This document shows, one piece after another, positions 19 to 22,969 of a stretch of 64,000 nt of DNA. This stretch comes from Sedimentisphaerales bacterium. GTDB lineage: Bacteria > Planctomycetota > Phycisphaerae > Sedimentisphaerales > Anaerobacaceae. The notes beneath the pieces are model-generated. The model was not told the origin of the DNA. It saw nothing but the letters and a program-made list of their open reading frames with translations, and made no database searches. The stretch lies in the NCBI GenBank assembly GCA_963708075.1, contig OY970194.1, forward strand, positions 2,592,001-2,656,000. The letters run 5' to 3'. Numbering within the stretch: position 1 is the stretch's first letter; each line of letters starts with the position of its first letter. The position numbers and the translations under genes were made by a program.

Positions 19-138
19 TCACCGAACCCACGGCATCGCCGCGGCCTGAATGCCATGGCGCGCGAAACGAGAGGGACGCGGACAGCCGATCCGCGTTCCC
101 CGCAAGGTGTCAACGTCAGTCCACAAGCCCGCTCTCAT
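19..138 (-). pseudogene. arnD: Truncated ArnD (Und-P-L-Ara4FN deformylase) N-terminal remnant
   Basis: The ATG overlaps the arnA stop (ATGA). Translation [32 protein letters not shown] resembles the ArnD start (GLRIDVDTxRGTRxGVP...H.IQA), then diverges and stops at 19-21 after 39 codons. Confidence 0.65.
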
Positions 139-2246: not shown

Positions 2247-3412
2247 TTGAGAACCTCCAGTTGTGACTGAGCAGGCATGTTCCGTTCCCTGATTTCCTGC
2301 CGGCCAATAACCTGATGAACAAAATAGCGAGGCCTCGCCCGCACATCATGATAGATGCGACCAATGTATTCCCCGAGCAACCCCATCGCGACAAATTGGG
2401 CGCCGATGAGGACGAAAAGAACGGCAAAGAGGGTGAAGACGCCCTCGGCTGCCCATCCCGGCCCATGGACCACTCGCATGATTAGCAGGAAGACGCCAAA
2501 TCCCATGCCCACGACCGATGTGATGCCGCCAAGGATACTGAGCAGACGCAGCGGGAAGGTCGTCATACTCGTCAACAGATCGAACTGGAGATTCACCAGT
2601 TTCCACAGGCTGTACTTCGAATCCCCACTGGATCGCTCGGCGTGGTGGACCTCGATTTCCGTTGCCTTTCGCGCGAAGCTGTTGGCCAAAACGGGAATGA
2701 ACGTACTTCGCTCGGGACACTGCAGCATGGCGCTAATGACGTGGCGTCGATAGGCGCGGAGCATGCAGCCGTAATCATGCATTGTCACGCCGGTGGCCCG
2801 CCGGGCCGCATGGTTGACGATCCGCGAGGCGACACGTCGAAACAACGGGTCCTGCCGAGGCGTGCGGATCGTGCCGATCACATCGTACCCTTCCGCCATC
2901 TTCCGAACGAGCTTCGGAATCTCCTCGGGCGGGTTCTGCAAGTCGGCATCGAGGGTCACGACGATCTCGCCTCGGGATTCGCCAAAGCCGGCCATCACGG
3001 CGGCATGCTGGCCATAGTTGCGGTTCAATAAGACCCCCACGACCCTTCCGGCGTTCTGTTCCGCCGCCTCGGCGATGATCTTCGATGAGCTATCCGAGCT
3101 GCCGTCATCCACGAGAATAATCTCGAATGACCCCTCCGTGCCTTCACAGCTATCCAGACAACGTCGGATGAGCTCCGGCAGACACCTCTCTTCGTTAAAT
3201 ACGGGGATCACCAGGGACACAGCCGGTCTGGTCTGCGGCGATGGCGAGACTGTGCGATGAAGGTCAGGTTGACAGATGCCTTCCTCCAATGTGTCGTCGT
3301 TAACGGTACGAAGCGGCGTCGCGTCGTGAGCGGCCGGTTGGGAATGCACCAAAACGGTCTTCGCATGTCCTGAGCTATGCAGACCTCGTACTTCGTCGGA
3401 CGTCTTGGCCAT
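2243..3412 (-). CDS. arnC: Undecaprenyl-phosphate L-Ara4FN transferase ArnC (GT2) with ~60-aa N-terminal extension
   Basis: [45 protein letters not shown] motifs and two C-terminal TM helices; lies between arnB and arnA. Confidence 0.92.
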
Positions 3413-3415
3413 CGG

Positions 3416-4612
3416 TTAGCACCTTTCTTCAAGGATCGTCTTGCCTGCGGCAGAGGATGGCTGCTTGTGCAAGACGTCTTTGATTGTCTCGATAACGTCG
3501 TTGACGTCGCGTTCCATCATATCCGGGAAGAGGGGGAGCGAACAGATTCGGTCGGAGTTCCATTCCGTGTTCGGCAATGCGCCTCGGCGCATCCCCATGC
3601 ACTCCCTGTAGTACTTTTGCAGGTGCACGGCCCGGAAATGCAGGCCGGTCCCGATGTTTCTCTGCTTCAGTCGCAGCATGAACTCATCACGGGTCAGGCC
3701 TGCTTTGTCGATGTCCAGCCGGACAATGAATAGATGCCAGGCATGCTTCATCGGGTACGGGGGATCGGACAGGGGGATGATCTCCTCGATCTCCGCTAAC
3801 CGCTCGCGGTATTCCATGGCCAGTTCGGTTCGCCTGGCGTTGAGCTGATCCACGCGGGCCAACTGCCGCAATCCCAGGACGGCGGATATGTCCGTCATGT
3901 TGTACTTGTACCCGGGCTCCATGACCTCTGCCTGGGGCGAGCGTCCCTGCGTGTGGCGATCGTAGGCGTCCACTCCCAACCCATGAAATTTCAATCGCTT
4001 CACGCAGTCGAGGAGGGCCTCATCGTCCGAGCAGAACATACCCCCCTCGCCCGTCGTGATGTTCTTGATGGGGTGAAATGAGAAGATCGAGGTGCCGCTG
4101 TGGCCCACGTGCAGGCCGTGGTACTGCGTCCCCAGAGCGTGTGCCGCGTCCTCGATGAGGGGAATGTGCCTGGCGGCCGCCAATTGACGAATGGGTCCGA
4201 TGTCGGCCGGGGCTCCTGCAAAATGGACGGGGATGATCGCCCGCGTTCTGTCCGTCAGGCACGCTTCAATGGACTGGCAGGAAACCATCAACGTGTCACG
4301 ATTCACGTCGGCGAAGACTGGTGTGGCGCCGGCAAGAACAGTCAGATTCACGGTGGAAACCCACGTCATCGAAGGGGTGATTACCTCGTCGCCGGGACCG
4401 ACCCCGAGAGCCTTGAGGGCCAGGTGCATACCTGCCGTCGCCGAGGACAATGCCACGGCCCCGGGACAGCCGACGTACTCCTGGAATCTCTGCTCGAACT
4501 CTGTGGTTCTTGGGCCGGTCGTGATCCAGCCGCATCGCAGCACCTCCGCCACGGCGGCGATATCCTCCTCCGTGATCGATGGCCGCGAGAATGGTAGAAA
4601 ATCAGTTCGCAC
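3416..4612 (-). CDS. arnB: UDP-4-amino-4-deoxy-L-arabinose aminotransferase ArnB (DegT family)
   Basis: FLPFSRP, GWITTGP, IEDAAHA, PLP lysine motif [25 protein letters not shown]. Confidence 0.94.
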
Positions 4613-6389
4613 GACTCATACCCTCCGCAACCCCTGCCGCTTTCGAAGCATTCATGGGACACCCCCAGAACCAGGCTATCCATTTCTCCTTCTTGGAAGA
4701 CTTGGATTCCCACGGGTATAGTTGCTCACGAAGGCTCTGCTGCCTCCACAGCTCGCTGACGATTTCTTCGGGAAGCCCGGCCACATACCTGTTCTGGGTA
4801 ATGACCACGCCAGGAAGACTCGATTCCAGAAAATGGCGGAATTGGTCGGCGTCTTTGATGATCTGTATCGGCTCATCGGCATGGAGATAGAAAAGCAGGT
4901 TCGCGTTCGCCTTGGGGAACACAGCGATCCTCTCCGGCGGGAGCTCGGCTGACCTCGCCCGCAATTCACCGGCGAATGGGCGCTCCGTTCGATTCATGTC
5001 GAGGATGTTCTGTTGCCAGCAGAAGTAGCCTCCCAGCAACACAGCTGCGACTCCGATCCATGGCTGGATGACTCTGCGCTCGCTTGGGGAGAGCTTTGAC
5101 CATTGTATGAATTTGTCAAGGCTCACACCCAGGAGAATTGCGGCCGCCCCAATGCCAAGACTGACCAAATAGAATCTCAGAGGGGCTTGGAAGTGCAATA
5201 CTCTCCCGGCAATCGTCAAAATCAGGGGAATTGCCAGGTCGAATGCAACCGCCCCGATCAGCAGGGCTCTCTGGGCCGCCAGCCCCCATTGCCGAAGGTC
5301 ATCCATTCCAGGCTCACGGATCCAGGCGACGAAGACAGCCATCAGTAGAGCACAAAGCGGCAGGATCGGCAGGATGTAATAGCCGCGTCGCGAGCCGGAG
5401 AGGCTGAAGAACAGGAACACCAGCACAATGGCCCAGATCAGCCATCGTGTATGACTGTCGAGCCCCTTCCTGTACTTGGCCATGCCAACCGCCGCCAGCA
5501 CAAACAAGGGGGTCCAAGGCAGCAAGAGACGCGGCAGCTCATAAAGGTACAGGTAGATCGGACCTTTGTGGTCGAGGGGTTGGAAATAGCGAAGAATATT
5601 CTCCTGAAAGACCAGCGCCAGGCCGCTCGACTGATAATCGGCGGGCTGAGTCAGAGAGGCATACACAAACGGAGCCAGGTAGACAAGCGACGCAAGCCCG
5701 AAGGCCCCTATGTGCTTGATACTAAAGAGGATGCGCCAGCGTCTTTCCGTCAGCATATCCGGCAATACAATGAGAATGGGAACGACCACCGCCGCCAAAC
5801 CTTTGGTTAAGGCGCCGATAAAGGCGATCAGGTAGAAAACGAGCATGGTGGGAAAACCTGGACGATCACGTCTTGACCAATACCAGACGACCGCCAGCAT
5901 GATGGCCGCGAGATTCTCGGCATCGGCCGTGCCGGTCCGGGCCCAAAAGATGAAGGAATACGTTGTCAGGAGCAGCCAGCCGGCGATTCTTCCCGTCTGG
6001 GCCGACCACAACCGGGCCCCGACCTTCATCGTCGCCCAGACGGCCGCCACGCCGGCAACGGCGCTCGGAAGCCGTAAGACCAGTTCATTCAGCGTGCCGG
6101 TCATCGCAACGATGGCTGCACGGAGCCAGTACGTCAGCAGCGGTTTGTCAAAGTAGGGCTCTCCGCCAATCGTGGGATGAAAGAAATCGCCCGTCAGAAA
6201 CATCTCACGTGTGACCTGGGCCCAGCGCCCCTCCGCCGTCCACAGACTGCAAGTACCCAATCCCCACAATAGCAGGAACGCTCCAGTCGACAGCAGTGCG
6301 ATATCTGCCCACTGCACGTGCCCGCCAACTGTGGCATCCGACTCAATCTGCCGGACATTGTCCTTAACGCAACCGGAGTATATATCCAT
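4602..6389 (-). CDS. arnT: ArnT-like glycosyltransferase family 39 (L-Ara4N transferase)
   Basis: Polytopic membrane protein with [36 protein letters not shown] motifs. Start uncertain (the ORF extends to 6488). Confidence 0.85.
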
Positions 6390-6688
6390 GTTTAGATTCC
6401 GCTCGAAGACCGGCCTCCGTAGTCTCCAAGCTGAACGCATTACATCGGGGGCAATGACTGATGCCTGACGAAGCATCGTCCCGACCAACCGGTAGACTCC
6501 GACAGTCCTAGCCCGGAGGGTACAGATCGAACCTTAATGGAAGATGAAGAAATCGGGGGCCATAGTAAGGAAATTACTGATTCCCCGGGAATAAGTCCGC
6601 CACTGTCGTATTGGGGGGCCTTTTTTGCTCGCGCCATGCTGCCTCCCGAACAGGACACGGGTGGGGCCTGCGATGGCGAGAGTCACGG

Positions 6689-6716
6689 TTGCACATCTCT
6701 GCCGGGCAGGTACAAT
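6689..6716 (+). promoter_or_regulatory. Putative sigma70 promoter of the two-component operon
   Basis: TTGCAC-N16-TACAAT about 80 nt upstream of the regulator ATG. Confidence 0.45.
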
Positions 6717-6795
6717 GGGCAGGTCTTGGCACTGAGGTCAAGGAACATAGGTTAGAGAACGTGGCCTGGGGGCCCATGGAATTGGTGGCCGGACA

Positions 6796-7474
6796 ATGAG
6801 AGTGTTGATTATCGAAGATGAGATCAGACTTGCGCAATATCGCCAAGGCGCTCAAGGAGACAGCGTCGTACGCAGTGGATATTTCCACCGATGGCGAGGA
6901 TGGCTGGCATCAAGCTCTCTCAAATCCCTACGACCTGATCCTGCTCGATCTGATGCTGCCGAAGGTGGGTGGGTTGGAGATCCTCGCAGAATTGCGCCGC
7001 CAAGGCAATCGGGTCCCCGTGCTCATACTTACCGCGAGGGACACCACCCGGGACATTATCCGGGGTCTGAACTCAGGCGGTGATGACTACATCACGAAAC
7101 CCTTCGACATGGGCGAGCTCCTGGCTCGCTGCAAGGCGATGGTGCGTCGAACCTATGATCGTCCCGACCCGGTTGTGCGTATCGGTGAGTTGTCGGTAGA
7201 TACATCCAGCCGGCTGGTGACCCTTCGAGGCCGGCGCGTGACGCTATCCGCGATGGAGTATCGGCTCCTGGAGTATCTCGTGTGGCGGGCCGGTCAGATC
7301 GTCAGCAAGGCGGAGATCATCGAACACCTGTATGATTTCAATGCCGAAACCTTCTCAAATGTTGTCGAGGTGTACATATCCACCCTTCGCAGAAAACTGG
7401 ATGTCGATCCCGAACGCTCCCTGATTCACACCGTCCGGGGTTTGGGATACGTCCTGGGAGAGGTATCCACGTGA
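6796..7474 (+). CDS. OmpR/PhoB-family response regulator (PmrA/QseB-like); apparent frameshift near 6833
   Basis: MRVLIIEDE in one frame joins NIAKALKE...YDLILLDLMLP...GGDDYITKPF...IHTVRGLGY in another. Restoring GC in TGCGCA gives a ~226-aa protein. Confidence 0.9.
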
Positions 7475-8895
7475 AGCCTCTATCCATCCAGTTGCGGTTG
7501 TCTCTGATGGTGTTGATTCTCACTCTGGCCATCATTGCGGTCTTGTCTGTTGCGGCTTATGTTGAGTTTGAGGAGTCATTGCTGGGGAACACTGACGACA
7601 CTCTGAGAGCCATGGCCGAAGGGATACAGGCCGAACTCGATGAACGGGACAGCAGAGAGCACCAGGAAGCCGAACTGCGGGCCATCACGGGGTACGGCAC
7701 CTCCGAACGCTCCAGCCAGTATCGTATCTGGTTGGATGGAAGTGAAAGAGACATGTTTGCCAGCGAATCATCCAGTGATCCACTACCCCAAGCACTCCTT
7801 CGCCTGCCCCTCGGCGAACAACCTGACGTGAACGATTTCAGCCTGTTCAATATTACCGGCGATCCAGAATCGGGCACGGAATATACGCTCCGCGCCATAT
7901 GGATGCGCCATGTCTTGCATGAGGAGGTTGCCAATATCCTTGTGGCACGCTCGTGTGGATATGTGTATCACGAGGTGGCTGAGTTCCTTGGGCTCCTGTT
8001 CATGGCGGGAGGTTCCGTCACATTGCTGACTGTGCTGCTGGTGCCGATCATCATCTCGCATGGGCTGCACGCAATCACAGACCTCGGAGCGAAGTTGGGA
8101 CAAATCACGCACAGTAGTTTGAAGAATGACAGTGACATCATGCCGGACGTCCCTATTGAGCTGAAGCCATTCAAGGCGGCGTTGCAGGAGATGTTGTCGC
8201 GTCTGCATAAGACGATGCAGCAGCAGGAGCGGCTTACTGCAGATGTCGCGCACGAGCTGCGCACGCCTCTGGCGATCATCAAGAGCACGCTCCAGACGCT
8301 GCGAATACAAGCCCGACCGGCGATCGAATATGAGGAGGGCATCGACGATACGCTCAAAGACGTCGATCGCATGGAGCATCTCGTAAGCCAGCTTCTCTCT
8401 TTGGCACGACTGGACGCCGCCGACGCCGTCCACAATCCGGCGGAAATCCGCTTGGACACCCTGCTGAGATCGCTGACGGATGTATTCCACGACCGGGCCG
8501 GCCAGCAAGGAGGACGAGTGGTCTTCACGAACAGCGCCCCAGTCTCGATCCGGGGCGATGAAACCGAATTGTGGCAACTCTTCAGCAATCTGCTCGACAA
8601 CGCCATTCGACATGGACCGCGGGGAGGACTCATTCGCGTGGACCTCCAGAACGAGCCGGACACATGGGCAATGGTCTGTGTCCATGACGAAGGCGGCGCC
8701 ATTCCGGCCGAAAGCCTCCCTCACTTATTCGATCGTTTCTATCGGGTGGATTCCTCCCGGTCTCAGACCTCCGGCGGCAGCGGCCTGGGGTTGGCCATTG
8801 CCTGCGGAATCGTTCAGCGGCACCATGGAGATATCGCAATCACGTCAGACCCGAAAGCCGGGACCTCGGCCATCGTCCATCTGCCACGGCTATAA
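7471..8895 (+). CDS. Sensor histidine kinase (HAMP-HisKA-HATPase)
   Basis: Two TM segments, H-box AHELRTPL, N-box NLLDNAIRH, DEGG, FDRFYR, GSGLGLAI; overlaps the regulator stop. Confidence 0.93.
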   Translation: MKPLSIQLRLSLMVLILTLAIIAVLSVAAYVEFEESLLGNTDDTLRAMAEGIQAELDERDSREHQEAELRAITGYGTSERSSQYRIWLDGSERDMFASESSSDPLPQALLRLPLGEQPDVNDFSLFNITGDPESGTEYTLRAIWMRHVLHEEVANILVARSCGYVYHEVAEFLGLLFMAGGSVTLLTVLLVPIIISHGLHAITDLGAKLGQITHSSLKNDSDIMPDVPIELKPFKAALQEMLSRLHKTMQQQERLTADVAHELRTPLAIIKSTLQTLRIQARPAIEYEEGIDDTLKDVDRMEHLVSQLLSLARLDAADAVHNPAEIRLDTLLRSLTDVFHDRAGQQGGRVVFTNSAPVSIRGDETELWQLFSNLLDNAIRHGPRGGLIRVDLQNEPDTWAMVCVHDEGGAIPAESLPHLFDRFYRVDSSRSQTSGGSGLGLAIACGIVQRHHGDIAITSDPKAGTSAIVHLPRL

Positions 8896-9290: not shown

Positions 9291-9298
9291 GTGGAGAC

Positions 9299-9388
9299 CG
9301 GAGAGGCCGGGATTCGAACCCGGGGTAGGGGTTAACCCCCTACGACGGTTTAGCAAACCGTTGCCTTAAGCCACTCGGCCACCTCTCC
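9299..9388 (-). tRNA. tRNA-Ser (GCT), CCA not encoded
   Basis: Minus strand reads GGAGAGGTGGCCGAGTGGCTTAAGGCAACGGTTTGCTAAACCG...GGGTTCGAATCCCGGCCTCTCCG: 7-bp acceptor stem, GCT anticodon, long variable arm, TTCGAAT T-loop. Confidence 0.97.
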
Positions 9389-9443
9389 AAACCGTCTATC
9401 TACAATGACTTACGTCAAATCCTCGTCTTCCGCTCAGCAGGCT

Positions 9444-10177: not shown

Positions 10178-11500
10178 ATGACTGAGAAAGCAACCCTGTT
10201 CATCAGCCATTCGACGCATGGACTTCCCAAGACCGACGCTTGTGTGCAGGTCCGGGACGCGCTGGCATCGACCTTCCGAGCAAAGAACTGGGACTTCTTC
10301 CTGGACATGAAGGCTATCGCTCCCGGGAACTCCTGGAGAGCGGACATCCTTCACAGCCTGGCCACGGCTCGCGCGGGGATCATCCTGTTCAATCAGAACG
10401 CCTGTGCTTCCACCTGGGTCACAGCGGAGGCTCTCATCCTGTGCTTCCGAAAATCGATCGATCCGGACTTTCCCGTCGTCCCTGTGCTCTTTCCAGGAGT
10501 CAGCCTGGACACCACCTGCATGAAGGCATACGAGCCGTTTCAACTCAATGAGATACAGGCGGATAGATATGACCCCGCTTCCGCTTTGTCCCCGGATGAG
10601 TTTGCGCAAGGGTTGGCGAAGAACGATCGTCTCAAAAGAGCCATGGAACGTCCGGGGAACGGCAGCGCCTGGGTGAAAGCCGTCACGGATTTGCTGAGCA
10701 GGTTGGATATTGATGTCTTGCGCCGCGCGGCCGAGCAACTGTCACTGGACTGCGGATCCCCCCTGCCCCCCGATGAGATGGCCCGCTGTCTGGCATGCTC
10801 CATCGCCAGCGTCATGCACGAGAGGCAGCCGCAGGATTGTGTACCAGCGTTTGGCGAGTTGATACCACCATTACTATCTGAAAAGGCGGCCTCATTGAGA
10901 CGCTATTTGGAGGCCAAATGGGTCGAGAACGAAAGCGTCGAGATTCTCCTCCACGCTTCGCACACGCCGGAAGCCCGAGGTCTTCTGGCGTTGAACACCT
11001 CACACGTACAGGTCACAAATCGCTATATAGATCGGGTGAACTACGAGCTTCCGGCGGGACGCACCCCCTTGCAGCGGATTTCGGTGCCCGAACCGAAAGG
11101 CGATTTCGAGGAACACGGTCTGATTCATGAAGTCGAGTCTGCCATCCGGGCCGTCCTCGTGAAGGATCCTCTCTACGATTCGGAAGGCAACGAACTCCCG
11201 TTAGAAGGGGCGGTGCGAGAGCTGTTATCGTCGGCGAAGAGATTTGCGATCTGTATCTTGCCCCCCCAATACACCTCCAAAGACGTCCTGCTGGAGTTGC
11301 GCAGACGTTTTTCCCGCATCATCTTCATTGTGGAGGCGGGCGACAAGAGCGAGCACATGACGAACTGCTTCGCCGCCGGTGCCAGGCAGCTCAATCCGCT
11401 GCTGAAACCGGCGAAATTGAACGAGTTTGCAGTTCTTCGTCGAGATCTGGACGCTACGTTCGATCAATACAATATCCTCAATTCTGGTGCGCACGTATGA
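10178..11500 (+). CDS. TIR-domain protein with C-terminal inactive-STAND/VMAP-like region
   Basis: TLFISHS...FFLDMKAIAPGNSWRADI...STWVTAE (TIR_2 with catalytic-position Glu). The C-terminal alpha/beta region lacks a Walker A. Alternative start 10163; stop overlaps the MoxR ATG. Confidence 0.8.
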   Translation: MTEKATLFISHSTHGLPKTDACVQVRDALASTFRAKNWDFFLDMKAIAPGNSWRADILHSLATARAGIILFNQNACASTWVTAEALILCFRKSIDPDFPVVPVLFPGVSLDTTCMKAYEPFQLNEIQADRYDPASALSPDEFAQGLAKNDRLKRAMERPGNGSAWVKAVTDLLSRLDIDVLRRAAEQLSLDCGSPLPPDEMARCLACSIASVMHERQPQDCVPAFGELIPPLLSEKAASLRRYLEAKWVENESVEILLHASHTPEARGLLALNTSHVQVTNRYIDRVNYELPAGRTPLQRISVPEPKGDFEEHGLIHEVESAIRAVLVKDPLYDSEGNELPLEGAVRELLSSAKRFAICILPPQYTSKDVLLELRRRFSRIIFIVEAGDKSEHMTNCFAAGARQLNPLLKPAKLNEFAVLRRDLDATFDQYNILNSGAHV

Positions 11501-12528
11501 AAACGACCCCACAATACGAACCGTTCCTCCCCTGGGCCAACCTGCCGCGGTACGGAATTCAGGGTGTATCGCCGGATGACCGATCCGGAGACATTTACCT
11601 TGAAGACGAGAGACTTCGGCTTGTGACCGAAGTGGCGATCGTCGCCAGGAGGCCATTGCTGATTCGCGGCGAGCCCGGCTCCGGCAAGTCCTCGTATGCG
11701 CCGTTTGCGGCCCGAAACCTCAACTGGCGTTACTACGAGTACACTGTAACGGGCCGGACGGAGGCAAAGGATCTGCTCTGGCGATTTGACGCGCTTGCTC
11801 GCTTGCGCGACGCTCAAGCGCAAGTGAAGCGAGAGCAAATGAAGCCTGCGCGTTATGTGACGCCGGGGGTCCTGTGGTGGGCTTTCAATCGGCAGGACGC
11901 GATAGCATTCTCCGCAACCGTGCACTCGAGGCGAACCGCGACCGCGACCCAGAGCCGGATCACGGAGCCTTTCGCCGAGGTGAACCGCAACCGCAATCCC
12001 GCGGGGGTGGTGGTCCTGATCGACGAAATCGACAAAGCGGATCCAGACGTGCCGAACGATCTCCTGGAAGTCATGGGGATGAATCGCTTTCGAGTGGAAG
12101 AAGCGGATCACGAGGTGGAGAGCCAACTGGCTGCCTCGCCGGGAGATTTCGACCCGGCGAATCGGTATGGTAGACTGCTGATTGTCATTACCACCAACGA
12201 GGAGCGCGACTTGCCGGCGGCTTTCCTGCGCCGATGCATCGTCCACACCTTGGAGGAACCGAAAGACAAGGAGTCAAGGATGCAACGACTGGGCAGCATC
12301 GCCCGCCTGCACATGGCGTCCCTGATCGAGAACCAACCCCAGGGTGTGGATTTTGTCAAACAGATCGCCGGGAAATGCGAGGATTTGCGTGAAGAGGCCC
12401 GACACAAGCAGCGGCGCGGGCCGAGCATAGCCGAATTTCTGGATGCCGTCCGGGTCTGTCTGACCCTCGGCGTTCCGCCTACCGATGCACGGTGGCAAAC
12501 GATTCAGCAAAATGTTCTGCTCAAGTAG
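11497..12528 (+). CDS. MoxR-family AAA+ ATPase
   Basis: PLLIRGEPGSGKS (Walker A), DLLWRFDALARLRD, VLIDEIDKAD (Walker B), ITTNEERDLPAAFLRRC. Confidence 0.93.
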   Translation: MKTTPQYEPFLPWANLPRYGIQGVSPDDRSGDIYLEDERLRLVTEVAIVARRPLLIRGEPGSGKSSYAPFAARNLNWRYYEYTVTGRTEAKDLLWRFDALARLRDAQAQVKREQMKPARYVTPGVLWWAFNRQDAIAFSATVHSRRTATATQSRITEPFAEVNRNRNPAGVVVLIDEIDKADPDVPNDLLEVMGMNRFRVEEADHEVESQLAASPGDFDPANRYGRLLIVITTNEERDLPAAFLRRCIVHTLEEPKDKESRMQRLGSIARLHMASLIENQPQGVDFVKQIAGKCEDLREEARHKQRRGPSIAEFLDAVRVCLTLGVPPTDARWQTIQQNVLLK

Positions 12529-12579
12529 ATCACGATCCCTTTCAATAACGAGGACGTTTCCCCAACAGGAGAGGCCAGG

Positions 12580-13551
12580 ATGAACATGTGGCAAGGACAT
12601 CCGCGGAGCGAAGTGGGTCTTGCCGAGATGGTGCAAGCCTGCTATGTCCTCAATTTGTGCGAGGAAACCCATCTGCAGTGGCTGGCTCAGTCTCTGGGCC
12701 TGTTTTGGGCCAAAGTACCCGACCGCGAGGGCGATTCCACAGCCGCCGGAGCTGCGCCGAGCCCAGCGTCCTCTCCGCCCCCCGCCACCCCACCGAAACC
12801 CGAGCCACCCCGAAAGCTCCAATTGCTCGATCCGGTGGCTCAGAAGCCCATGGCCTTTGACGTGTTGCTCGCCGGGGATGCAGAGAGGGTCCGATCTGCG
12901 GCTCAACTCCGAGTTCCGGCCGCACCCACCAGCCGGGAATCCTCCTCGCACCAACCGTTGTTCGGGGATCGGTGGTTCCTCGGCATCATAAGTGCCATTC
13001 TCGCCACCCAAATGACCTCCCACGAAATCGACCTCCAGCTTCTGTGGCGGAGTATCATCCATGGTGAGGTCTTCAAGAAGCTTCCGCTGCGAAAGCATTC
13101 GAGTTTGATCAAGGGCGTGCATCTGCTCCTGGATCGCTCGGAATCGATGCAGCCGTTCTGGCGTGACCAGACCCAATTGGTGAGCCGACTGCGTCGCCTC
13201 CTCGGCAGACCCAAAGTTCAGACCACATGGTTCGAGTTTGATCCGCTCAGGCCCCGTGAGACACGTCTGATCTGGCCCGCGCGCATGCCGAATCGCTTTC
13301 GGGAGACAACCCCCGTTCTCCTCGTCACGGATTTTGGAATCGGAATGGACCCCCTGGCGGCTTACTACATGGAGTGGGAGCCTTGGCTTCCCGTTTTCCA
13401 GCTTGCCCGGAGTTGCCGCTGTCGAGTGCTTGCCCTGGTTGCGGCTCCGAGCAACCTGTGGCCCGCGGGCTTGGAACAGTTCGTCGATGGGGCTGTCGTT
13501 TGGGATCGTGAAACATCTCCACAGGTGGCCACACGCCTATGCCGAACGTAG
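12580..13551 (+). CDS. vWA-domain protein (MoxR partner)
   Basis: MIDAS-like LLLDRSESMQPF and VLLVTDFG; Pro-rich N-terminal linker; directly follows MoxR. Confidence 0.8.
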   Translation: MNMWQGHPRSEVGLAEMVQACYVLNLCEETHLQWLAQSLGLFWAKVPDREGDSTAAGAAPSPASSPPPATPPKPEPPRKLQLLDPVAQKPMAFDVLLAGDAERVRSAAQLRVPAAPTSRESSSHQPLFGDRWFLGIISAILATQMTSHEIDLQLLWRSIIHGEVFKKLPLRKHSSLIKGVHLLLDRSESMQPFWRDQTQLVSRLRRLLGRPKVQTTWFEFDPLRPRETRLIWPARMPNRFRETTPVLLVTDFGIGMDPLAAYYMEWEPWLPVFQLARSCRCRVLALVAAPSNLWPAGLEQFVDGAVVWDRETSPQVATRLCRT

Positions 13552-16500
13552 AGACAATCGCTCACGATGAATCGGGTGCCATCGAGGAGGCACGCTCTGA
13601 AGTGGCGGCTTGCGAAAGGAGGCGGCCTGACGTCGTGGCGTTGGCGGAACTCGCCTCCCTGGCTCGGTTCATCGAACCGGAGTTGCTTCGCGCGATCCGA
13701 CTGGAACTGGGCGAGCGAGCCGCCGGATCGACACGAATGACGGTGGCCAGCGAGTCGGCTGTCTGGTTCAGCCCATTTGTCGCAAGTCGGGGCGCGGACG
13801 GTATTACCTTCCTGCCGGAGTATTGCCACGTGCTTCGACCGCGACTGGCCGCCCATCGCCTCCTTCTGGAGGACACCAGGCGCGTCGTTGAGGAGTGCCA
13901 CAAATCGGCCCCCGACGTGCTTCAGTGGGAAGAGAGAATCGTATATCTCGCATTAACCGGACGGTTGGACGAACTGGAGAATGAAATCGTACGGGGCATC
14001 AAAAGCATCTCTCAAGGAACCAGGCCGCCGCTGGTCAATTGGATCCTCGAAATGGGGCCCCGTCTGCCGCAAGAGGTGTCCAACAACGCACTGTTGAACA
14101 AGCTCCACAGCCTGGCCGCCGGTTTGTCGCTGCGACGAACTCCCACCGGCGCCGGCAGCAAGGGACTGATTCTCGATTTCTCCTCCTTGCCGACGCGCGA
14201 ATTGGGGGTAGCGCTTCGAGAGAACAACTTCGTGATCGGGGACGTACCGCAAGCCACTGTCGGAATTCGAGTGCCCGACTGGGAGCCGGTGGAAATCGAT
14301 ATTCTGACACCCAAGGAATTGATTACCGGCCAACCCCTTGTTGTATCCCGCGACGGATTTGCGGAAGTCAGCGCCTCCAGGGGAGTCGTGCGGATTCAGA
14401 CGGTGGCTGGCCACGTCTACGAACTCGATCCGGCCTCTTTCCGGCCCCTCCAGTCTCATACGATCTTCATCAGCTATAGTCACGAGGATGAAGCGTGGAA
14501 AGACAAGCTGCTGCCGCATCTCAAGGTGCTGGAACCGGCCGGCATGAACATCAGAATCCGGAGTGATATGGAAATTGACGGCGAGGCAAACCGGCATTCT
14601 CAAATCCAGGACGCCCTCGCCGAAGCCGACGTCGCCGTGCTGTTGATCTCGCCTGACTACCTGGCCTCTCGTTCCATAATGGATAAAGAGGTCCCCGTTT
14701 TGCTGGAGCGTCAGAAGAGGGACAACATCCTCTTGATTCCTCTGCTCGTTCGCCCATGCAGGTGGGAGACACACCAATGGTTGAGGGACCGACCGATGCT
14801 GCCCCGAGACGGCAGATCGATGGCGACCGATTATCCGGGAGAGAAGGCCGACACCGTTTTGAGCGAGATAGCTCGTTACATTCACGAGCATCTCACCCGT
14901 CTCGGAGACCCTTCGCAACGTGAGGCGATGCCGCGGGGCAGTGACGAGTGGCCCCAGTTATCACCGAACGATGTCTCCATTGCCAGGCTCCCTACTTCCA
15001 GCGAGCACTTCCTGGGTCGCGACGACGAACTGGCCTTCCTCGACGCAGCATGGGCAGGAGAACTCGGCTCGAAGTTCGTGTTGCACGATTCCCGCTTCAC
15101 GTATCCCAAACCTCGGCCCACTGTTCTCACTATCGTCGCTTGGGGCGGCGTCGGCAAATCCGCCCTCATCAACGAGTGGCTTGCGCGCATGGCGCGCGAT
15201 CACTGGCGTGGAGCGGAGCGGGTCTTTGCGTGGAGCTTCTACAGCCAGGGCACGCGGGACCGCGTCGCTTCCGGCGACTCGTTCATTGCCGAAGCGCTCA
15301 AGTGGTTCGGCGACCCGGACCCCGTCGCCGGGTCCCCATGGGACAGAGGCGAGCGGCTCGCCCGGCTCATCCGCCGGCAGCGCACGCTGCTTCTTCTGGA
15401 CGGCTTGGAGACGCTTCAGCAGCCGCCGAACGCCCCGGAGCCGGGCCAGATCACCGACCCCGCGCTGGCCGCGCTCGTCCGCGAGTTGGCCATGGAGAAC
15501 CCGGGCCTGTGCGTCATCACCACCCGTGAGCCAGTGACCGACCTCGCCGGCACACACCGGGCCACCACCGCCCAACTCGACCTCGCACACCTGTCCCCCG
15601 AAGCCGGCGCTATGCTCCTGCGTGAGTTGGGCGTGCAAGGCGCTGACAGCGAGTTACGGCAGCTCGTGCAGGAGGTGCGCGGCCATGCCCTGACTCTCAG
15701 CCTGACCGGCAGATATCTGGTAATGGCCTACGCCGGCGACATCCGTAAACGTGGGGAATTGAAGCTCCTCAAGGCCGACGCCGCAGTGCAAGGCGGCCAC
15801 GCCTTCCACATCATGGAAACGTATGACAGGTGGTTCCTCCGCGAGGGCGAGCAGGGCCGGCCGCTGATCGCCATCCTGCATCTGCTTGGCCTCTTCGATG
15901 GACCGGCGGACTCAGGATGTCTCGCCGCATTGCGGAGGAAGCCACCCATCGCCGATCTCACGGAGCCGCTTATGGGTCTTACCGACGCCCAATGGAGACT
16001 CGCTATCTCGCAGTTGGCCTCCTGCGGTCTCGTGTCAGTCCAATCTGACGAATCCGCAATCGATTCTCATGCCTTGGTCCGCGAGTATTATGCCGAGCAG
16101 GTGCGAACGCGATTTCCTGCGGCATGGAGGGAAGGTCAGAACCGATGCTATGAACACTTCCAACAGATTGCACCCGAACGGCCCGACACGCTGGAAGAGA
16201 TGATGCCGCTCTTTGCCGCCGTGACCCATGGCTGCCAGGCTGACCAGCATCAACGTGCGTTTGACGACGTGTACTACCGACGGATTTGCCGCGAGAGTGA
16301 GTTGTATCAACTCCGCAGGCTTGGCGTCTTCGGTGCTGATCTTGGGGCTATTTCCGGCTTCTTCCTCCGGCCTTGGGATGAGCCGGTCCCGACTTTGCGC
16401 GATTCCAGCCAAGCATGGTTGTTGAACGCGGCGAGTTTCGACCTGCGAGCTCTGGGCCGTCCGGCGGAGGCGATGCAGCCGGCGCGAACCAAACTGGACG

Positions 16501-17471
16501 CACACGCGGCCAAGGAGGACTGGGAGCAGGTCGCACGCGCTGCTGGCCACCTCAGTGAGTCGAGCCTGACACTGGGAGCACTGACGGAGGCCGCGCAGTA
16601 TGCCAGGCAGAGTATGAACCTCGCTGATCGCAGCGAGAATATGTTGTGCCAAATCACCAGCCGCACGGCGCTGGCCGATGTCCTGCACCAAGCCGGCCAG
16701 TTGGAGGAAGCCGAAAAGCTGTTCCACGAGGCCGAAATCATGCAGACGAAGACGCAGCCGGAGTACCCGCTGCTCTGTTCATTGCAGGGCTACCGGTATT
16801 GCGACCTGTTGTTGACCCTGGGCGGTTGCGGGCCGTTGCTGTCGGATTCAGTCAGCCGATCTCAGAAAGCTCCTGTCGAATCGCCGACGCGTTCTGCCTT
16901 CACCCCGGGCTCTGCCTGCGAGCCCCAGTCCGCGATCCAAGCGTGCCACGCGGTGCAGCAACGCGCCACTCAAACGATCAGGATTGCCGAGCAGGGCCAA
17001 TGGCCTCTCGACATTGCGCTCGATCATCTGAGTCTGGGTCGAGCCATCCTGCTGGAGCATGTCCTGGGGCCCGATGATCAACCGCTGGACCCTGCATCCA
17101 AACACCTGAATGCCGCCGTGGACGGCCTTCGGCGAGCCGGAAGACAGGATTGCCTGCCTCTCGGCCTGCTGGCACGAGCCGCGCTGTGGCGGGTCGGCGG
17201 CGACCCGGTCGGCGCGGCGCGTGATTTGGGCGAAGCGAAGGGACTGGCCGACCGGAGCGGTATGAAGCTCTTCCTGATCGACGGTCTGATCGAGCAAGCG
17301 TGTCAATTGATTCAGGAGCCGGGGAGCAGGACTCAGAAGTCGACGGGCGAGCGGCTGGAGTCGGCCCTGGAGTGTGTGGCAAGAGCTAGGACGCTCATCG
17401 AATCCACCGGCTATCACCGCCGTGACAGAGAGATCCGTTACCTCGAACAGAGCATAGAAAGACAATCGTAA
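13539..17471 (+). CDS. NLR-like protein: vWA-associated N-terminal region + TIR + STAND NTPase + TPR repeats
   Basis: IFISYSHEDEAW...LLISPDYLAS...DKE (TIR), IVAWGGVGKSAL (Walker A), LLLLDGLE (Walker B), VITTR, GHALTL, then helical TPR-like repeats. Overlaps the vWA gene by 13 nt. Confidence 0.88.
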   Translation: MPNVETIAHDESGAIEEARSEVAACERRRPDVVALAELASLARFIEPELLRAIRLELGERAAGSTRMTVASESAVWFSPFVASRGADGITFLPEYCHVLRPRLAAHRLLLEDTRRVVEECHKSAPDVLQWEERIVYLALTGRLDELENEIVRGIKSISQGTRPPLVNWILEMGPRLPQEVSNNALLNKLHSLAAGLSLRRTPTGAGSKGLILDFSSLPTRELGVALRENNFVIGDVPQATVGIRVPDWEPVEIDILTPKELITGQPLVVSRDGFAEVSASRGVVRIQTVAGHVYELDPASFRPLQSHTIFISYSHEDEAWKDKLLPHLKVLEPAGMNIRIRSDMEIDGEANRHSQIQDALAEADVAVLLISPDYLASRSIMDKEVPVLLERQKRDNILLIPLLVRPCRWETHQWLRDRPMLPRDGRSMATDYPGEKADTVLSEIARYIHEHLTRLGDPSQREAMPRGSDEWPQLSPNDVSIARLPTSSEHFLGRDDELAFLDAAWAGELGSKFVLHDSRFTYPKPRPTVLTIVAWGGVGKSALINEWLARMARDHWRGAERVFAWSFYSQGTRDRVASGDSFIAEALKWFGDPDPVAGSPWDRGERLARLIRRQRTLLLLDGLETLQQPPNAPEPGQITDPALAALVRELAMENPGLCVITTREPVTDLAGTHRATTAQLDLAHLSPEAGAMLLRELGVQGADSELRQLVQEVRGHALTLSLTGRYLVMAYAGDIRKRGELKLLKADAAVQGGHAFHIMETYDRWFLREGEQGRPLIAILHLLGLFDGPADSGCLAALRRKPPIADLTEPLMGLTDAQWRLAISQLASCGLVSVQSDESAIDSHALVREYYAEQVRTRFPAAWREGQNRCYEHFQQIAPERPDTLEEMMPLFAAVTHGCQADQHQRAFDDVYYRRICRESELYQLRRLGVFGADLGAISGFFLRPWDEPVPTLRDSSQAWLLNAASFDLRALGRPAEAMQPARTKLDAHAAKEDWEQVARAAGHLSESSLTLGALTEAAQYARQSMNLADRSENMLCQITSRTALADVLHQAGQLEEAEKLFHEAEIMQTKTQPEYPLLCSLQGYRYCDLLLTLGGCGPLLSDSVSRSQKAPVESPTRSAFTPGSACEPQSAIQACHAVQQRATQTIRIAEQGQWPLDIALDHLSLGRAILLEHVLGPDDQPLDPASKHLNAAVDGLRRAGRQDCLPLGLLARAALWRVGGDPVGAARDLGEAKGLADRSGMKLFLIDGLIEQACQLIQEPGSRTQKSTGERLESALECVARARTLIESTGYHRRDREIRYLEQSIERQS

Positions 17472-17775: not shown

Positions 17776-17804
17776 TTGAGAATCAGTTCCGGCTATGTCA
17801 TAAT
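17776..17804 (+). promoter_or_regulatory. Putative sigma70 promoter of the SLATT gene
   Basis: TTGAGA-N17-CATAAT with an extended -10 TG. Confidence 0.5.
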
Positions 17805-17949: not shown

Positions 17950-18993
17950 ATGGACACGAAAATCAGCGAGGACGCGGCGAACGTAGAAGCGTTGATTCGA
18001 AGGGCAGAGAAAGACATCGGCTCGGATGATCTTGAGGATTACCGCATCCGGCCGACGATCTTCCCTCAAACCACCCAGCGCCCGGCGCCGGAACTTGCCG
18101 ACGTATTGCGCGACAGTCTGCTGACTGAGACGGCGATGCGCTATGAAACGAAAGACGCCAAGGCGCAGGCGGCTCAGAGGTCACTCAAGCGGTTGGCGAA
18201 CTGTAGTACCTGGTCAGTTTTCGTCGTGACGGTAACGGGTGCCCTGCTTGCCAGCCTGAGTATTTTCTCTGCCGCCGACACGAGTTCACGTTGGAGGCCA
18301 GTGGTTATATTGCTGAGCTGTTGCGCCTTATTGGGCGGGGCGTTGGCAAGCTGGTGCCTTTGCCGCATCGACAAACAACATCTCCTTCGAGACTGGATGA
18401 GCGCGCGCGCTGGTGCGGAGTCAGAGAGGCTGGCCTACTTCGAACGGCTCGTTCAGCGCATCACGGAGAATCACGCGGAGGACCCGCGTGTGATGTTGCT
18501 CTGCCTGGAATTCTTTCGCCGCTATCAACTTGCCGTACAGCAGGTGTACTATAGGACGCGTACCCAGGATCATGGTAGCTCGCGAAGGAAAACGGTCGCC
18601 ATCGGGGCTGTTGCGGTAGCCATCCTTTCCGTCGGTTCCGGCGGTTTCGGCATATGGGCATCCATCCGACCTGAGGTGCTTCCGCTGGCAGCACTTGGGG
18701 CTATCGGAAGCGCCTTAGCCATCGTGGCCACTCGTCGTGAGGAACTCAACCAGGACGAACGTAACGCTGAACGATTTGAACGCACCTCAGATGCGTTGAG
18801 CCATGTCAGGGAGCGCCACTCCGCCGTCCAGAATGCTGTTGCACGCGGCAACTCGCGGGTCCTCTCACAATATGTCGCTGCTGTTCATGAGCAGGTTTCA
18901 CTTGAACATCGGCAGTGGCTTGCAGACGCTGAGACCATAGGCGTACAAATCAAGGAGTTGAACGCATCTCTCAAAGACCTTGGGGAGAAGTGA
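17950..18993 (+). CDS. Tandem SLATT/DUF4231-like 2x2TM membrane effector
   Basis: Two TM hairpins, each followed by a charged helix (WMSARAGAESER; NAERFERTSDAL); Q..YY before the second hairpin; C-terminal EQVSLEHRQW. Confidence 0.72.
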   Translation: MDTKISEDAANVEALIRRAEKDIGSDDLEDYRIRPTIFPQTTQRPAPELADVLRDSLLTETAMRYETKDAKAQAAQRSLKRLANCSTWSVFVVTVTGALLASLSIFSAADTSSRWRPVVILLSCCALLGGALASWCLCRIDKQHLLRDWMSARAGAESERLAYFERLVQRITENHAEDPRVMLLCLEFFRRYQLAVQQVYYRTRTQDHGSSRRKTVAIGAVAVAILSVGSGGFGIWASIRPEVLPLAALGAIGSALAIVATRREELNQDERNAERFERTSDALSHVRERHSAVQNAVARGNSRVLSQYVAAVHEQVSLEHRQWLADAETIGVQIKELNASLKDLGEK

Positions 18994-19226
18994 GGTTGTC
19001 GACCACCTCTTCTGTCCATGGCGTGCAGCGATGGTTCCGTCGCTTCGTCCTCCAGCTCCAGAAGGTGTTCCCCGGGCTCCAGCCGGATCATCCGGTTCGT
19101 GTCACCTGGAATCGTCTCGCTGATTCTGCCCCCCGCCTCACATGGGAATTGTATTACAGGCCGCGCCGCGTCCGTTCTCTTGCCACGCACTTTCTGGGTG
19201 CACGACAAAAAAGTGGCACTCGATCC

Positions 19227-19315
19227 GGGTGGCAGCGTCAAGGCCGAAGGCCTTGGCGATGGTTATGCTGCGTCCGAGGCAGGCCATCGCCAAGCTGCGC
19301 TTGACGCTGCCACCC
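19227..19315. repeat. ~90-bp palindromic REP/MITE-like element, copy 1
   Basis: GGGTGGCAGCGTCAAG...CTTGACGCTGCCACCC outer IR and TTGGCGATGG/CCATCGCCAA inner IR; homologous copy at 46672. Confidence 0.75.
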
Positions 19316-19383
19316 AAGAGTCTCATCCTCGCTCTGCCACAATCTTGTCGTACACCCCACTTTCTCAGGCCCGGAATAAATGC

Positions 19384-19584: not shown

Positions 19585-21139
19585 ATGACGACATGTATTC
19601 CGAACTACGACGCGCTCTATGTTGTCTCTGACATTCATATGGGGGGCGGTAAGCCGCGCTTTCAGATCCTGAACCAGGGGTCCCGCCTCGGGAAGCTGAT
19701 CCAAAGGCTGGCCGGAGAGCGCCCCGATGACGAGGTCGCACTCGTGTTGAATGGCGACGTCATCGACTCCCTCGCGGAAGATTCCATCGGGTATATTGCG
19801 ATAGACAATGCCGACCAGATGATGCGTCATATCTATCGAGATCCAGCCTTCGAGCCGGTGTGGCGCGGCTTGGCCGAATTTGTGAAGCAGGATCATCGCC
19901 ACTTGATCTTCGTCCTGGGCAATCACGACCTCGAAATGGCGCTCCCGCACGTCGAGTACTCGATACGCCAGCAGATCACACAAGGAGACACGCTGCGGCA
20001 GGGTCGCATCACGTTCGCTACGCGCGGTGGCGGCTATGCATGCAAGGTCGGCCACTCTCATGTGTTCTGCACGCATGGGAACGAAGTCGACGATTGGAAC
20101 GTCGTCGATTATGGCGCCCTTGGCAGGCTCGCACGAAGCATCAATGTTGGACTGAGCCTCAAACAGTCCGAGTGGACTCCCAATGCCGGGACGCGGCTTG
20201 TCATCGATGTCATGAACGGCATCAAACAGGACTACGCCTTCGTCGATCTGCTGAAACCCGAGAACCGAGACCGTCGTCCCCATCTTACTCGCTCTCGAGC
20301 CGTTGACAATAAAGGATGTCCTTGCGTTTCTGCCCGGCATTATGGCCGGCAAGTTCTGGGGCGGGCTTAGAAGGCGGGGAATCCTCTCCGGCGACGTGGA
20401 CAGCATGGAGGCGATCACAGATGCGAGGGCGGCGGGCGATGCCGTCCTCGATAGCTTGCTCGGCCCTCACTTCAAACAGGCCATCAAGCCCGGCGGCTCA
20501 TGCATGCCACAAGACACCGGCACCTTACTCCTTGACGTCGAGACATCCCTTGCCTCGGGCCCTGACAACCCAGACAGTGACGGGACGGAGCAGGGAGAGA
20601 CACTCGGAGTGATTCAGTGCGCCCAGTACGTTGCAGACCGCCTCAGGGGCGTCGATAAGGTAGAAGCGCTGCGTCGAGCCCTACAAGACTGGTTGTCGGA
20701 GGATGAGACATTCAAGCTCGACACTAAAGACAAGACCTACAAACGGGTGACTGACAAAGTCGGCTCCGCCGTGGATTTCGTCATCACTGGTCACACCCAC
20801 CTGGAGCGGGCCATTGCCGACGAGTCCAAGCGGCGTTTCTATTACAACTGCGGGACATGGGCTCGCTTGCTCCGTCTCGGGCCCAAGACTCTGTCTGACC
20901 CCGAGACGTTCCAAACAATCTGGGATGTCATACGCGCCGGAGAGATGCAGAAACTCGATGAGACAACTGTCAAGGCTGACGACGGATCGGAGGTGCCTCT
21001 GATTCTACTCAAGTCGACTGTGGTGAGAATCTCTTCCGAGAATGGCAAGGTCGAGGGCAGACTTTTTCATGTGAGAGACACCGGCGCCGAGGATGTGGAT
21101 CTGGACCCGGTGCCTGACTCAACGTTCGAGAGGAGGTAA
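19585..21139 (+). CDS. Calcineurin-like metallophosphoesterase; apparent +1 frameshift at ~20263
   Basis: SDIHMG, NGDVID, GNHD and THGN in the first ORF; GHTH and YYNCGTW in the second. Removing one A from GAGAACC joins them (LKPETETVVPILLAL), ~517 aa. Confidence 0.87.
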
Positions 21140-21142
21140 GGG

Positions 21143-22969
21143 ATGGCTGCGGTACACGAAATCACGCTTGAGTTGTTACGTGAGGGCCGGGCGCACAACC
21201 AACTGCTATCGGAGTTTACCCGATACCTTGCCATCTGTGGCGACGCATCCCCGGCGACGGTCAGCTTCGAGAACCGAGCACCGAGCGCTTCTCGATCGTC
21301 TCGATCACCTTCGATATCTGGACGTTCGCGAGGCGTCGCGTCAATCGGCGGTGCGCGAGCTCGGTGAGATCAGCGGTCGCTTTCTAAGCAGTATCCCGGA
21401 GCTCAACGCGGAGCTATCGAGCCGGGAAAGTGCCGACTCCGACATCGTCCACTTGAGATTGGTTCTGTTCGGTTCCGAGCTTGGATTGATACCATTCGAG
21501 TTAGCCACCCTCCCCGAGGGCTCCGTGGGCGAGGGCCTGCCGCTTCTTCTCCAGTCGGAAACGCCCGTCACCCTGACCCGCGAGGTACGCCGCTGCCGCC
21601 CAGTCCCCGTAAACTGGGACCGCAAGCCTCGGATTCTTTTTGTTTCTGCCGAGCCCGGGGACTCGAGGTGCCTGTCAGGGCGCACCTGGGGGCCTTGCGA
21701 CGCGCCCTGGAGCCATGGATCACGTGGGAGAAGACGCCGGAAGAGCGTCTGCGGCACGTGAACGAGTCGCTGACCGTTCTGACGGGAGCCAGCCTCGAAG
21801 CTATCCGGGACGCCTGTCGTTCCAAGCCTTTCACCCACGTTCATATCCTTGCCCATGGGATCCCCACCGAGGAGGCGGGCGAGAAGCGCTACGGCCTGGC
21901 GTTGAGCTCCAAGCGAGACCCTTCTTCACTCGATCGGATCACCGGACGGCAGATCGCCGTCGCACTCCGAGAGGGGCGACTGGGCCCTTCCGTGGTGACG
22001 CTCATGACGTGCGACAGTGGCAATCAGGCTTCGGTGCTGATCCCGGGCGGGAGCATCGCCCACGAGCTGCATGCGTTCGGCATTCCGTGGGTCATTGCAT
22101 CTCAGTTTCCTCTCACGAAGACAGGTTCCGTCACCGTCGTGCAGTCTCTCTACGAGGGTCTGCTCCGGGGTGACGATCCCAGGTTCGTGTTGCAGTCGGT
22201 GCGGCGGTCTCTTTACACACGAGCACACACCGACCACGATTGGGCCAGCCTCGTCGCCTATGCAACCTTGCCGCTCGATTTCGACCGGCAAGTTGCCGCA
22301 CTACGCGATCGACAACTGCGAACGGCCCTGGATGTCGCCCTCGACAAGGCAACGAAGACTCCGAGCGGCGATGAGGCCCTGGCGAACAGCCTGCAGCAGC
22401 TCGAACATCGACTTCTCGGCCTGTCGGAAAGCGACGAACTGGGGGCTCGTGCTGAGCGCTCCGAGTGGCTCGGTAAGAAAGCGGCGATTTCGAAGCTGCG
22501 AGCCGACATCCTGTACAAGCGAAAGCTGCCGACGGAAGCACGGGAACTGCTGCGCTCCTCTCGATCCTTGTATGGAAGGGCTCGGGAAGCGGATTTGAAC
22601 AACCATTGGGTCGCGACGCAGTTCCTCTCTTTGAGCGTCATTCTCGGCGAGAAGGTGGAGGACTTCTGGTGGGGCCTCGCTCGCTACAGTGCAGAGCAGA
22701 CGTTGCAGCGGGCTTCGAGCCTCGACCGGGCCTGGGCGCATGGGACGCTGGCGGAACTCGAAATGCTCAGCATCGTGAACGCCACGGATGGTATCCAGGA
22801 AATCCAGAAGAGGGTCAAGGAGCACTGTCGCGCGATCGTGCAGCTCGTCGGGAAAGATTCTTTCGTAGTCTTTTCGACGCGGCGGCAATTCACGCGGTAC
22901 ATAGAGTGGTGGGATTGCGATCAGTGGCGTCCGATCGCGCAAACGGCGGTCGAAGTCTTGAATGCCTGA
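21143..22969 (+). CDS. CHAT (caspase-like) protease with C-terminal TPR-like region; two compensating frameshifts (~21272, ~21660)
   Basis: ELGLIPFEL, ILFVSAEP, catalytic His (HVHILAHG) and Cys (LMTCDSG), VIASQFP, DWASLVAY. Three ORF pieces join into ~608 aa. Confidence 0.85.

Follow-up and report, generated by a model that had tools for sequence, protein, structure and literature searches.

Two published models of MoxR-vWA conflict systems disagree on which end of the system senses and which end acts, and a four-gene operon at positions 10178-17471 of a 64,000-nucleotide stretch of contig OY970194.1 from a Sedimentisphaerales bacterium (the whole stretch is hereafter called the window) raises the question of which class of these systems it represents and in which direction it signals. 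The operon is almost certainly a MoxR-vWA conflict system of the TERNS3 class, whose variable cargo is a TIR-STAND-TPR module, and the original prediction, made from the DNA letters alone, had rightly read it as a conserved MoxR-vWA conflict operon. With regard to direction, we favour an explanation in which the cargo senses, MoxR relays and a constant TIR domain in gene 1 acts; identity and mechanism taken together, we give this explanation a probability of about 0.55, and the mechanism as a whole, all steps of which are inferred, we hold to have roughly even odds.

TERNS3 systems were predicted computationally by Kaur 2021 (eLife, PMC8195603), according to which a third component fused to TIR is encoded together with MoxR and a vWA that stands alone, vWA-L and the variable domains behind it being encoded in a gene of their own. 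The class is described there as enriched in multicellular organisms and is predicted to act against invaders by way of an NAD-derived signal. By our count, parts 3-5 of source data 1 to Figure 2 of that paper hold 79 TERNS3 rows, with TIR fused to TERNS3-N and TERNS3 in 76/79, the arrangement vWA-L+TIR+STAND+TPRs in 4/79 and a SLATT+SLATT neighbour in 14/79. The operon displays the class order (third component, MoxR, separate vWA, vWA-L plus variable domains) as well as the class features, i.e., TERNS3-N and TERNS3 in the 5′ gene, a direct N-terminal TIR fusion on TERNS3, active-type MoxR motifs, a vWA with two aspartates and hypervariable domains behind vWA-L. No class-level difference from the published TERNS3 systems was observed, and the STAND-TPR family of the window differs from that of the Streptomyces TERNS3 systems.

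Membership was judged via loci matched to published rows, with profiles built here. For five of the fetched loci (Streptomyces Act143, cf386, Asanoa ishikariensis, Actinocrispum wychmicini and another S. olindensis strain), species and protein length agree with a published TERNS3 row, and the published protein length starts at an in-frame start codon in 5/5 of them. A profile of the gene 1 core behind the TIR domain matched these loci with E values of 9e-21 to 3e-34 (L068 with 2.5e-6). In the reverse direction, gene 1 was the sole significant match among 43,862 genome frames, with E values of 2.6e-6 for a profile of the five loci and 3e-16 for one of 50 actinobacterial loci; with four loci the value was 5e-4, and with three it was not significant. 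The vWA-L profile matched gene 4 in all five published-row loci, and the published annotation of the cf386 cargo was not reproduced in our Pfam scan. The MoxR subgroup of the window is close-knit, with approximately 87 proteins at 48-62% identity over the full length.

The linkage of the genes, a lack of which had been named as a refutation, proved to be conserved across approximately 110 related loci. A single-sequence search for such loci gave no match, and they were obtained with an alignment built from 84 close homologues of MoxR, the 160 loci being the best 80 of 552 plus the best 80 of 513 confirmed matches from two scans; many fetched loci are from Streptomyces, and counts are therefore not independent. 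Where a locus leaves room for it, a gene-1-like gene runs up to MoxR (109/119), vWA follows MoxR in 122/123, and vWA-L adjoins vWA in 108/115 (107 as a separate gene and one, L144, as a fusion); in five of the remaining seven, the vWA-L gene lies upstream on the opposite strand. Rearranged TERNS3 loci with the vWA-L gene in that position (frames of 1600-1900 aa) are L012, L013, L015, L021 and L039. Named hosts comprise actinobacteria, acidobacteria, myxobacteria, chloroflexi and proteobacteria. The TERNS3 system was not found among 150 sampled genomes of the host's family and was found in 6/400 sampled genomes of the phylum, a patchy spread that would be typical of conflict genes.

The operon is of neither the VMAP nor the iSTAND type, the two named originally, the exact architecture being that of the TERNS3 class in PMC8195603 and the VMAP and iSTAND profiles giving no match. 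VMAP systems, as described by Kaur 2020 (PMC7159879), share the order of third component, MoxR and vWA, and their helical extension after vWA, with conserved S, E and R and variable domains, resembles the layout of the window; however, the window gave no match to VMAP-C, carries vWA and extension in separate genes, and has the MoxR N-terminal motif YxxFLPWxN...PDDRSG instead of WxhapG/PsWRxa. Likewise, iSTAND and iSTAND2 systems (PMC7159879, PMC8195603) have an inactive STAND-like third component with an N-terminal signalling domain, and iSTAND2 has a separate vWA-L gene as in the window, but iSTAND2 is described with effector-associated domains (EADs) and trypsin where the window has a fused TIR. 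Furthermore, PF19995 (iSTAND) was found in 0/101 sequences (gene 1 and 100 relatives) at E 0.1 and nowhere in the host genome. Profile-profile comparison of TERNS3 with iSTAND (3, then 5 sequences) and with active STAND was not significant, like the reversed controls; hhalign gave probabilities of 0.2-1.3% against iSTAND, on just 3-5 sequences from the 5 loci collected from approximately 800 genomes. An Atlas feature search ranked iSTAND clusters at 0.78-0.83, under 0.9, which is a lead only.

With regard to other defence systems, aa 305-1310 of gene 4 share with Avs/bNACHT proteins the effector-STAND-TPR layout and intact Walker motifs, but gene 4 additionally has a vWA-L/beta adaptor and lies in a MoxR operon. 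PADLOC 2.0, whose library predates newer families, returned TIR-domain matches only for the operon and no Avs/NACHT model, and the main text of the 2026 STAND survey makes no mention of MoxR or vWA. BREX BrxB resembles the third component in being a dead STAND that is accompanied by an active ATPase and an effector, and Esr resembles the operon in that a variable sensor signals via MoxR-vWA (PMC13622651); neither has a common gene set with it, Esr leading to kinase/FHA signalling and secretion and BREX to DNA modification and a nuclease. As regards the claim that the system was experimentally undescribed, no experimental test of TERNS3 systems was found in the open-access literature, a scope that excludes most subscription journals, but the exact architecture had already been tabulated in PMC8195603. 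The names TERNS3 and vWA-L occur in open-access text, beyond Kaur 2021, in only one unrelated paper. New here are the reassignment of the TERNS3 fold, a second adaptor domain and the contrast between a constant and an optional TIR.

All four genes are intact open reading frames on the plus strand, with the overlaps and motifs as predicted (Table 1): tight coupling by an ATGA overlap of genes 1 and 2, a 51-nt gap between genes 2 and 3 and a 13-nt overlap of genes 3 and 4 was exact throughout. An alternative in-frame start of gene 1, ATG 10163, has a stronger ribosome-binding site than ATG 10178. Short-read contigs from three public runs, which are short and of low depth, listed no indel in 10178-17471, and the split between genes 3 and 4 is not an assembly artefact, because one independent contig (12891-13571) crosses the junction with 0 differences. 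A reading of both as a single frameshifted vWA-effector gene was rejected, given the unchanged independent contig and the recurrence of the split at 107/115 loci.

Table 1. Coordinates of the operon genes, their predicted domains and the downstream SLATT-like gene in the window.
Feature	Position	Strand	Description
Gene 1	10178-11500	+	440 aa from ATG 10178; TIR + TERNS3-N + TERNS3 third component
Constant TIR domain	10199..10501	+	Pfam TIR_2, aa 8-108, E 1e-8; catalytic-position Glu84 at 10427-10429
TERNS3-N five-helix linker domain	10667..10915	+	aa ~164-246; secondary structure from the model; name from PMC8195603 source data
TERNS3 degenerate AAA+/STAND-like alpha/beta domain	10916..11497	+	No Walker A or B
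Gene 2	11497-12528	+	343 aa; MoxR AAA+ ATPase (Pfam AAA_5/bpMoxR)
Gene 3	12580-13551	+	323 aa; stand-alone vWA co-chaperone
Gene 4	13539-17471	+	1310 aa; vWA-L + beta-rich domain + TIR-STAND-TPR cargo
vWA-L helical linker domain	13614..14084	+	aa 26-182; presumed docking on gene 3
Conserved beta-rich domain, unnamed	14136..14453	+	aa ~200-305; second constant adaptor part
Cargo TIR	14463..14918	+	Pfam TIR_2, aa 309-415, E 2e-13; Glu384 at 14688-14690
Cargo STAND NTPase	14961..16148	+	Pfam NACHT, aa 537-696, E 7e-7; Walker A GGVGKS 15144-15161; Walker B D621/E624
Cargo TPR array, presumed sensor	16149..17468	+	Pfam TPR_MalT/TPR_10/TPR_12, below cut-off
SLATT+SLATT-like protein with four transmembrane segments, possible accessory effector	17950..18993	+	NCBIfam SLATT_1 E 3e-6, SLATT_3 E 0.006, both below cut-off

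The MoxR of gene 2, of which type the host genome holds a single copy, has all its motifs intact (Walker A G58-S65, Walker B D176/E177 and R245/R246, invariant in 84/84 close homologues); its matches among the PDB sequences were midasin/Clp fragments. Gene 3 itself gave no match in Pfam, and none in a PDB sequence search. It was nevertheless called a vWA, in agreement with the original assignment, on the grounds of the LDRSESM motif (DxSxS at 13132-13146), VWA_CoxE matches in 7/103 aligned relatives (best E 5e-5) and its position in the published TERNS3 rows. D185 is present in 100/103 relatives and the second aspartate, D251, in 88/103; the full DxSxS, kept in the window, occurs in just 11/103. 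According to Kaur 2020 (PMC7159879), MoxR rings use ATP and remodel a client held by the vWA partner.

As for gene 4, the original reading as a TIR-STAND-TPR protein was correct for its larger part, but overlooked two N-terminal domains (aa 1-305). The first, vWA-L, would dock on the vWA, as we infer from the fusion of the two in L144 and in VMAP/iSTAND systems. The second, which reads as beta-rich, spans approximately 100 aa in 93 of the 94 complete fourth genes (one of the 95, a fragment of 91 aa, being set aside), starting at aa 174-275 with a worst E value of 1.6e-10. Its profile had a single significant match in the host genome and none in 119 stand-alone NLRs (0/119), and it is probably the '??' of some published TERNS3 rows. 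An Atlas search with aa 1-305 returned unnamed clusters only, and gene 4 matched designer repeats among the PDB sequences.

The relatives of the cargo are a stand-alone TIR-STAND-TPR family (2071 matches among 8000 scored), in whose best 119 non-self members vWA-L was found in 0/119 and TIR in 87/119. The STAND motifs are invariant in 86/86 aligned rows (stand-alone relatives plus the window) and the TIR glutamate is kept in 78/86 of these; most homologues of the cargo have TPR Pfam matches. In STAND, identity is 70% to the best two stand-alone relatives versus 44% to L081, the nearest TERNS3 relative, and vWA-L is 62% identical to that of L081. An adaptor and a captured NLR-like gene have thus been joined in gene 4, a chimera whose vWA-L is nearest to L081 and whose STAND is nearest to stand-alone NLR-like proteins without vWA-L. 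The GC content at third codon positions is 0.87-0.88 at aa 551-700, in the STAND part, versus 0.72 for the whole gene. The host genome also carries a stand-alone TIR-STAND-TPR paralogue of the cargo (G000:C1:1049264-1052242; 40-48% identity over STAND-TPR, in several frames). In the nearest relative (L081:639-7335), a pair of WD40-rich genes, of which the first matches TIR weakly, lies directly upstream, and in L084 gene 1 is immediately preceded by a TIR-STAND gene from the same family as the window's cargo.

Both TIR domains have the glutamate at the catalytic position, E84 in WVTAE (gene 1) and E384 in MDKE (gene 4), as had been seen originally. The original prediction was that of an NLR gated by a chaperone, with MoxR/vWA licensing the STAND oligomer and both TIRs joining in a single NADase. 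The intact glutamates and ATPase motifs of the window fit such a scheme, as does the fact that TIR-STAND-TPR has been recruited more than once (in a Streptomyces clade, L081, L136 and the window). Against it, 69 of the 94 fourth genes have no TIR: TIR occurs in 25/94, a STAND-like domain in 22/94 and both in 15/94, 12 of these 15 being one Streptomyces clade, the largest with TIR-STAND-TPR, and the closest relatives of the window's cargo are stand-alone proteins, so that gating an NLR is not the essence of the system. In that clade, moreover, the aligned position of the second TIR is Glu in 5/12 members and Asp in 2, the remaining 5 having neither; L081, the closest system, combines the same STAND-TPR family with another kind of TIR, a SEFIR-like one; and the two TIRs of the window show no significant mutual similarity. 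An obligate co-assembly of the two TIRs is unlikely, because a TIR is present in only a minority of the fourth genes and its glutamate is often lost, and we regard the scheme as a whole as improbable. Glu84 of gene 1, on the other hand, is invariant in 116/116 aligned homologues and 107/107 loci, which points to the gene-1 TIR as the putative essential enzyme and to the second TIR as optional.

The remainder of gene 1 bears on the direction of signalling. TERNS3 was described in PMC8195603 as a novel alpha+beta domain (novel fold), but our model shows it as a dead AAA+/STAND-like domain in which the core topology is kept and the Walker motifs are lost; the structure model and two fold searches are thus consistent with the degenerate NTPase-like C-terminus predicted originally. 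In the fold search on gene 1, which barely covered TERNS3-N, the BrxC-BrxB-PglZ complex appeared as an entry title, and among the PDB sequences TERNS3 matched a de novo designed ATPase (E 0.001). A complex prediction of MoxR, vWA and TERNS3 scored 0.00, which is evidence neither way. The best structural matches of TERNS3 are DNA-binding ORC/Cdc6 proteins, and it is the fastest-diverging part, at 21% mean identity. Both observations, together with the many cargoes that are proteases, lipases or nucleotide-cleaving enzymes, weigh against our explanation and favour the direction stated in Kaur 2020 (PMC7159879) and Kaur 2021 (PMC8195603), in which TERNS3 senses the invader (a dead STAND may bind nucleic acid), its TIR produces ADP-ribose as a signal, and the gene-4 module is then unleashed by MoxR-vWA as the effector. 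This direction is still viable, because TERNS3 diverges fastest and several cargoes are enzymes. However, a dead scaffold could also diverge fast, the architecture of TERNS3 is constant and wholesale domain swapping sits in gene 4, and many of the cargoes, being repeat arrays, lectin-like folds or copies of host proteins, have no toxic activity of their own; overall, we judge the published direction to be rather unlikely.

The diversity of the cargoes, which form 49 clusters among 93 sequences, was apparent in the Pfam census of the 94 fourth genes. The domains include CHAT, subtilase, trypsin, patatin, SIR2, PNP, amylase, RelA, TPR, WD40, ankyrin, FGE, LysM, peptidoglycan-binding, FHA, Roc, DnaA and VipA/VipB. 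Several cargoes are copies of housekeeping proteins, namely DnaA with an intact Walker A (L139), RelA/SpoT (L043), VipA plus VipB of the type VI secretion system (T6SS; L142) and CBM48 plus amylase (L011/L076/L159), and these are candidate baits.

In the explanation that we favour, TIR-TERNS3, MoxR, vWA and the vWA-L/beta adaptor with which gene 4 begins would form a constant machine. The adaptor would dock on vWA and present whichever module is fused behind it as a sensor or bait; here, the TPRs would bind an invader protein and STAND would switch with ATP. The MoxR ring, driven by ATP, would then remodel the vWA-adaptor-TERNS3 assembly, whereupon the dead AAA+/STAND-like TERNS3 scaffold would oligomerise or be released and cluster its own TIR. 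This TIR would cleave NAD+, resulting in cell arrest or in an ADP-ribose signal to which a SLATT membrane effector might respond, and the second TIR would be an accessory that arrived with the NLR module. The same signal direction was proposed for VMAP systems by Dore 2024 (PMC10907252), and the Esr preprint (PMC13622651) describes variable sensors that signal through MoxR-vWA in Actinobacteria, as modelled there, in a system acting against epibionts. More tentatively, and at somewhat less than even odds, TERNS3 may be a plug-in platform, i.e., a constant ATP-driven amplifier, made up of MoxR, vWA and a dead-STAND scaffold with an NADase TIR, that reads any sensor or bait on the two-domain vWA-L/beta plug, which would reverse the published sensor and effector roles and make TERNS3 the third recruitment of a dead STAND.

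A SLATT-like gene lies 478 nt downstream of the operon, with a promoter-like site of its own at 17776-17804. Its role as the operon's effector partner is uncertain: it did not match a profile of the SLATT pairs from related loci and belongs to another family. Such pairs were found near related loci in 8/74 long loci (by Pfam, among 80 neighbours rich in transmembrane segments) and in 19/160 loci (by profile). A SLATT effector step would have a precedent in type VII Thoeris (preprint 10.64898/2025.12.03.692087), in which a TIR enzyme that makes cyclic ADP-ribose adjoins a SLATT effector; these are two-gene systems, however, and MoxR and vWA have 0 occurrences in the available text of that preprint. 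NCBIfam matches to MadB and ThcB4 were far below the cut-off.

The threat itself might not be a phage. The same machine, with either signal direction, could answer an epibiont, predator, competitor or plasmid, or could serve signalling in multicellular development. Esr, the one MoxR-vWA threat pathway with experiments that we found, answers Saccharibacteria epibionts (PMC13622651), cargoes with peptidoglycan-binding, LysM and T6SS-sheath domains exist, and PADLOC has no model for the TERNS3 system. We nonetheless think this very unlikely, as those bacterial STAND-TPR proteins that have been characterised recognise proteins of phages (PMC13581612, PMC10907252) and the operon lies next to a tRNA and to SLATT-like, phosphoesterase and CHAT/TPR-S genes.

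Among these neighbours, the metallophosphoesterase gene (19585-21139) is in two frames, and the contig of one public run is one base short at 20263, so that the frame is probably broken by a surplus base in the assembly of the window. The gene for a CHAT (caspase-like) plus TPR-S protein (21093-22969) is fragmented, two runs being one base short at 21272/21273, with a further frame change at approximately 21660-21760; together with the phosphoesterase it may be a separate conflict module. Upstream of the operon, a tRNA-Ser(GCT) on the minus strand (9298-9389) is not an obvious attachment site, because its 3′ end is directed away from the island. A 170-bp non-coding repeat (19188-19357) has 129 genomic matches of at least 80 bp, 14 of them of at least 150 bp, and is skipped exactly in the contig of a related strain, with 8 letters fitting both sides, as in an insertion polymorphism like that of a miniature inverted-repeat transposable element. 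The island is flanked at 135-8895 by a lipid A modification-type cluster (formyltransferase/epimerase, GT2, DegT aminotransferase, PMT_2), which we take to be 'Arn-like', and a two-component pair; farther away lie an SMC gene (32036-35620) and a baeRF family 3/7 release-factor-like gene (58378-59544).

All motifs of the locus in the window are intact and its two TIRs can be separated, and it is hence suited to deciding the signal direction. Should specificity prove to follow gene 4, the vWA-L/beta plug would be a reusable handle that wires new sensors to an NADase. The reassignment of the TERNS3 fold suggests that a dead STAND-like third component is present in 3/6 MoxR-vWA classes. In plants, sensor-helper NLR pairs work with integrated decoys, and the platform reading can be likened to these; if it is true, TERNS3 would be a bacterial counterpart of such pairs, with sensors ranging from whole NLRs to copies of host proteins (DnaA, RelA, T6SS sheath, amylase).

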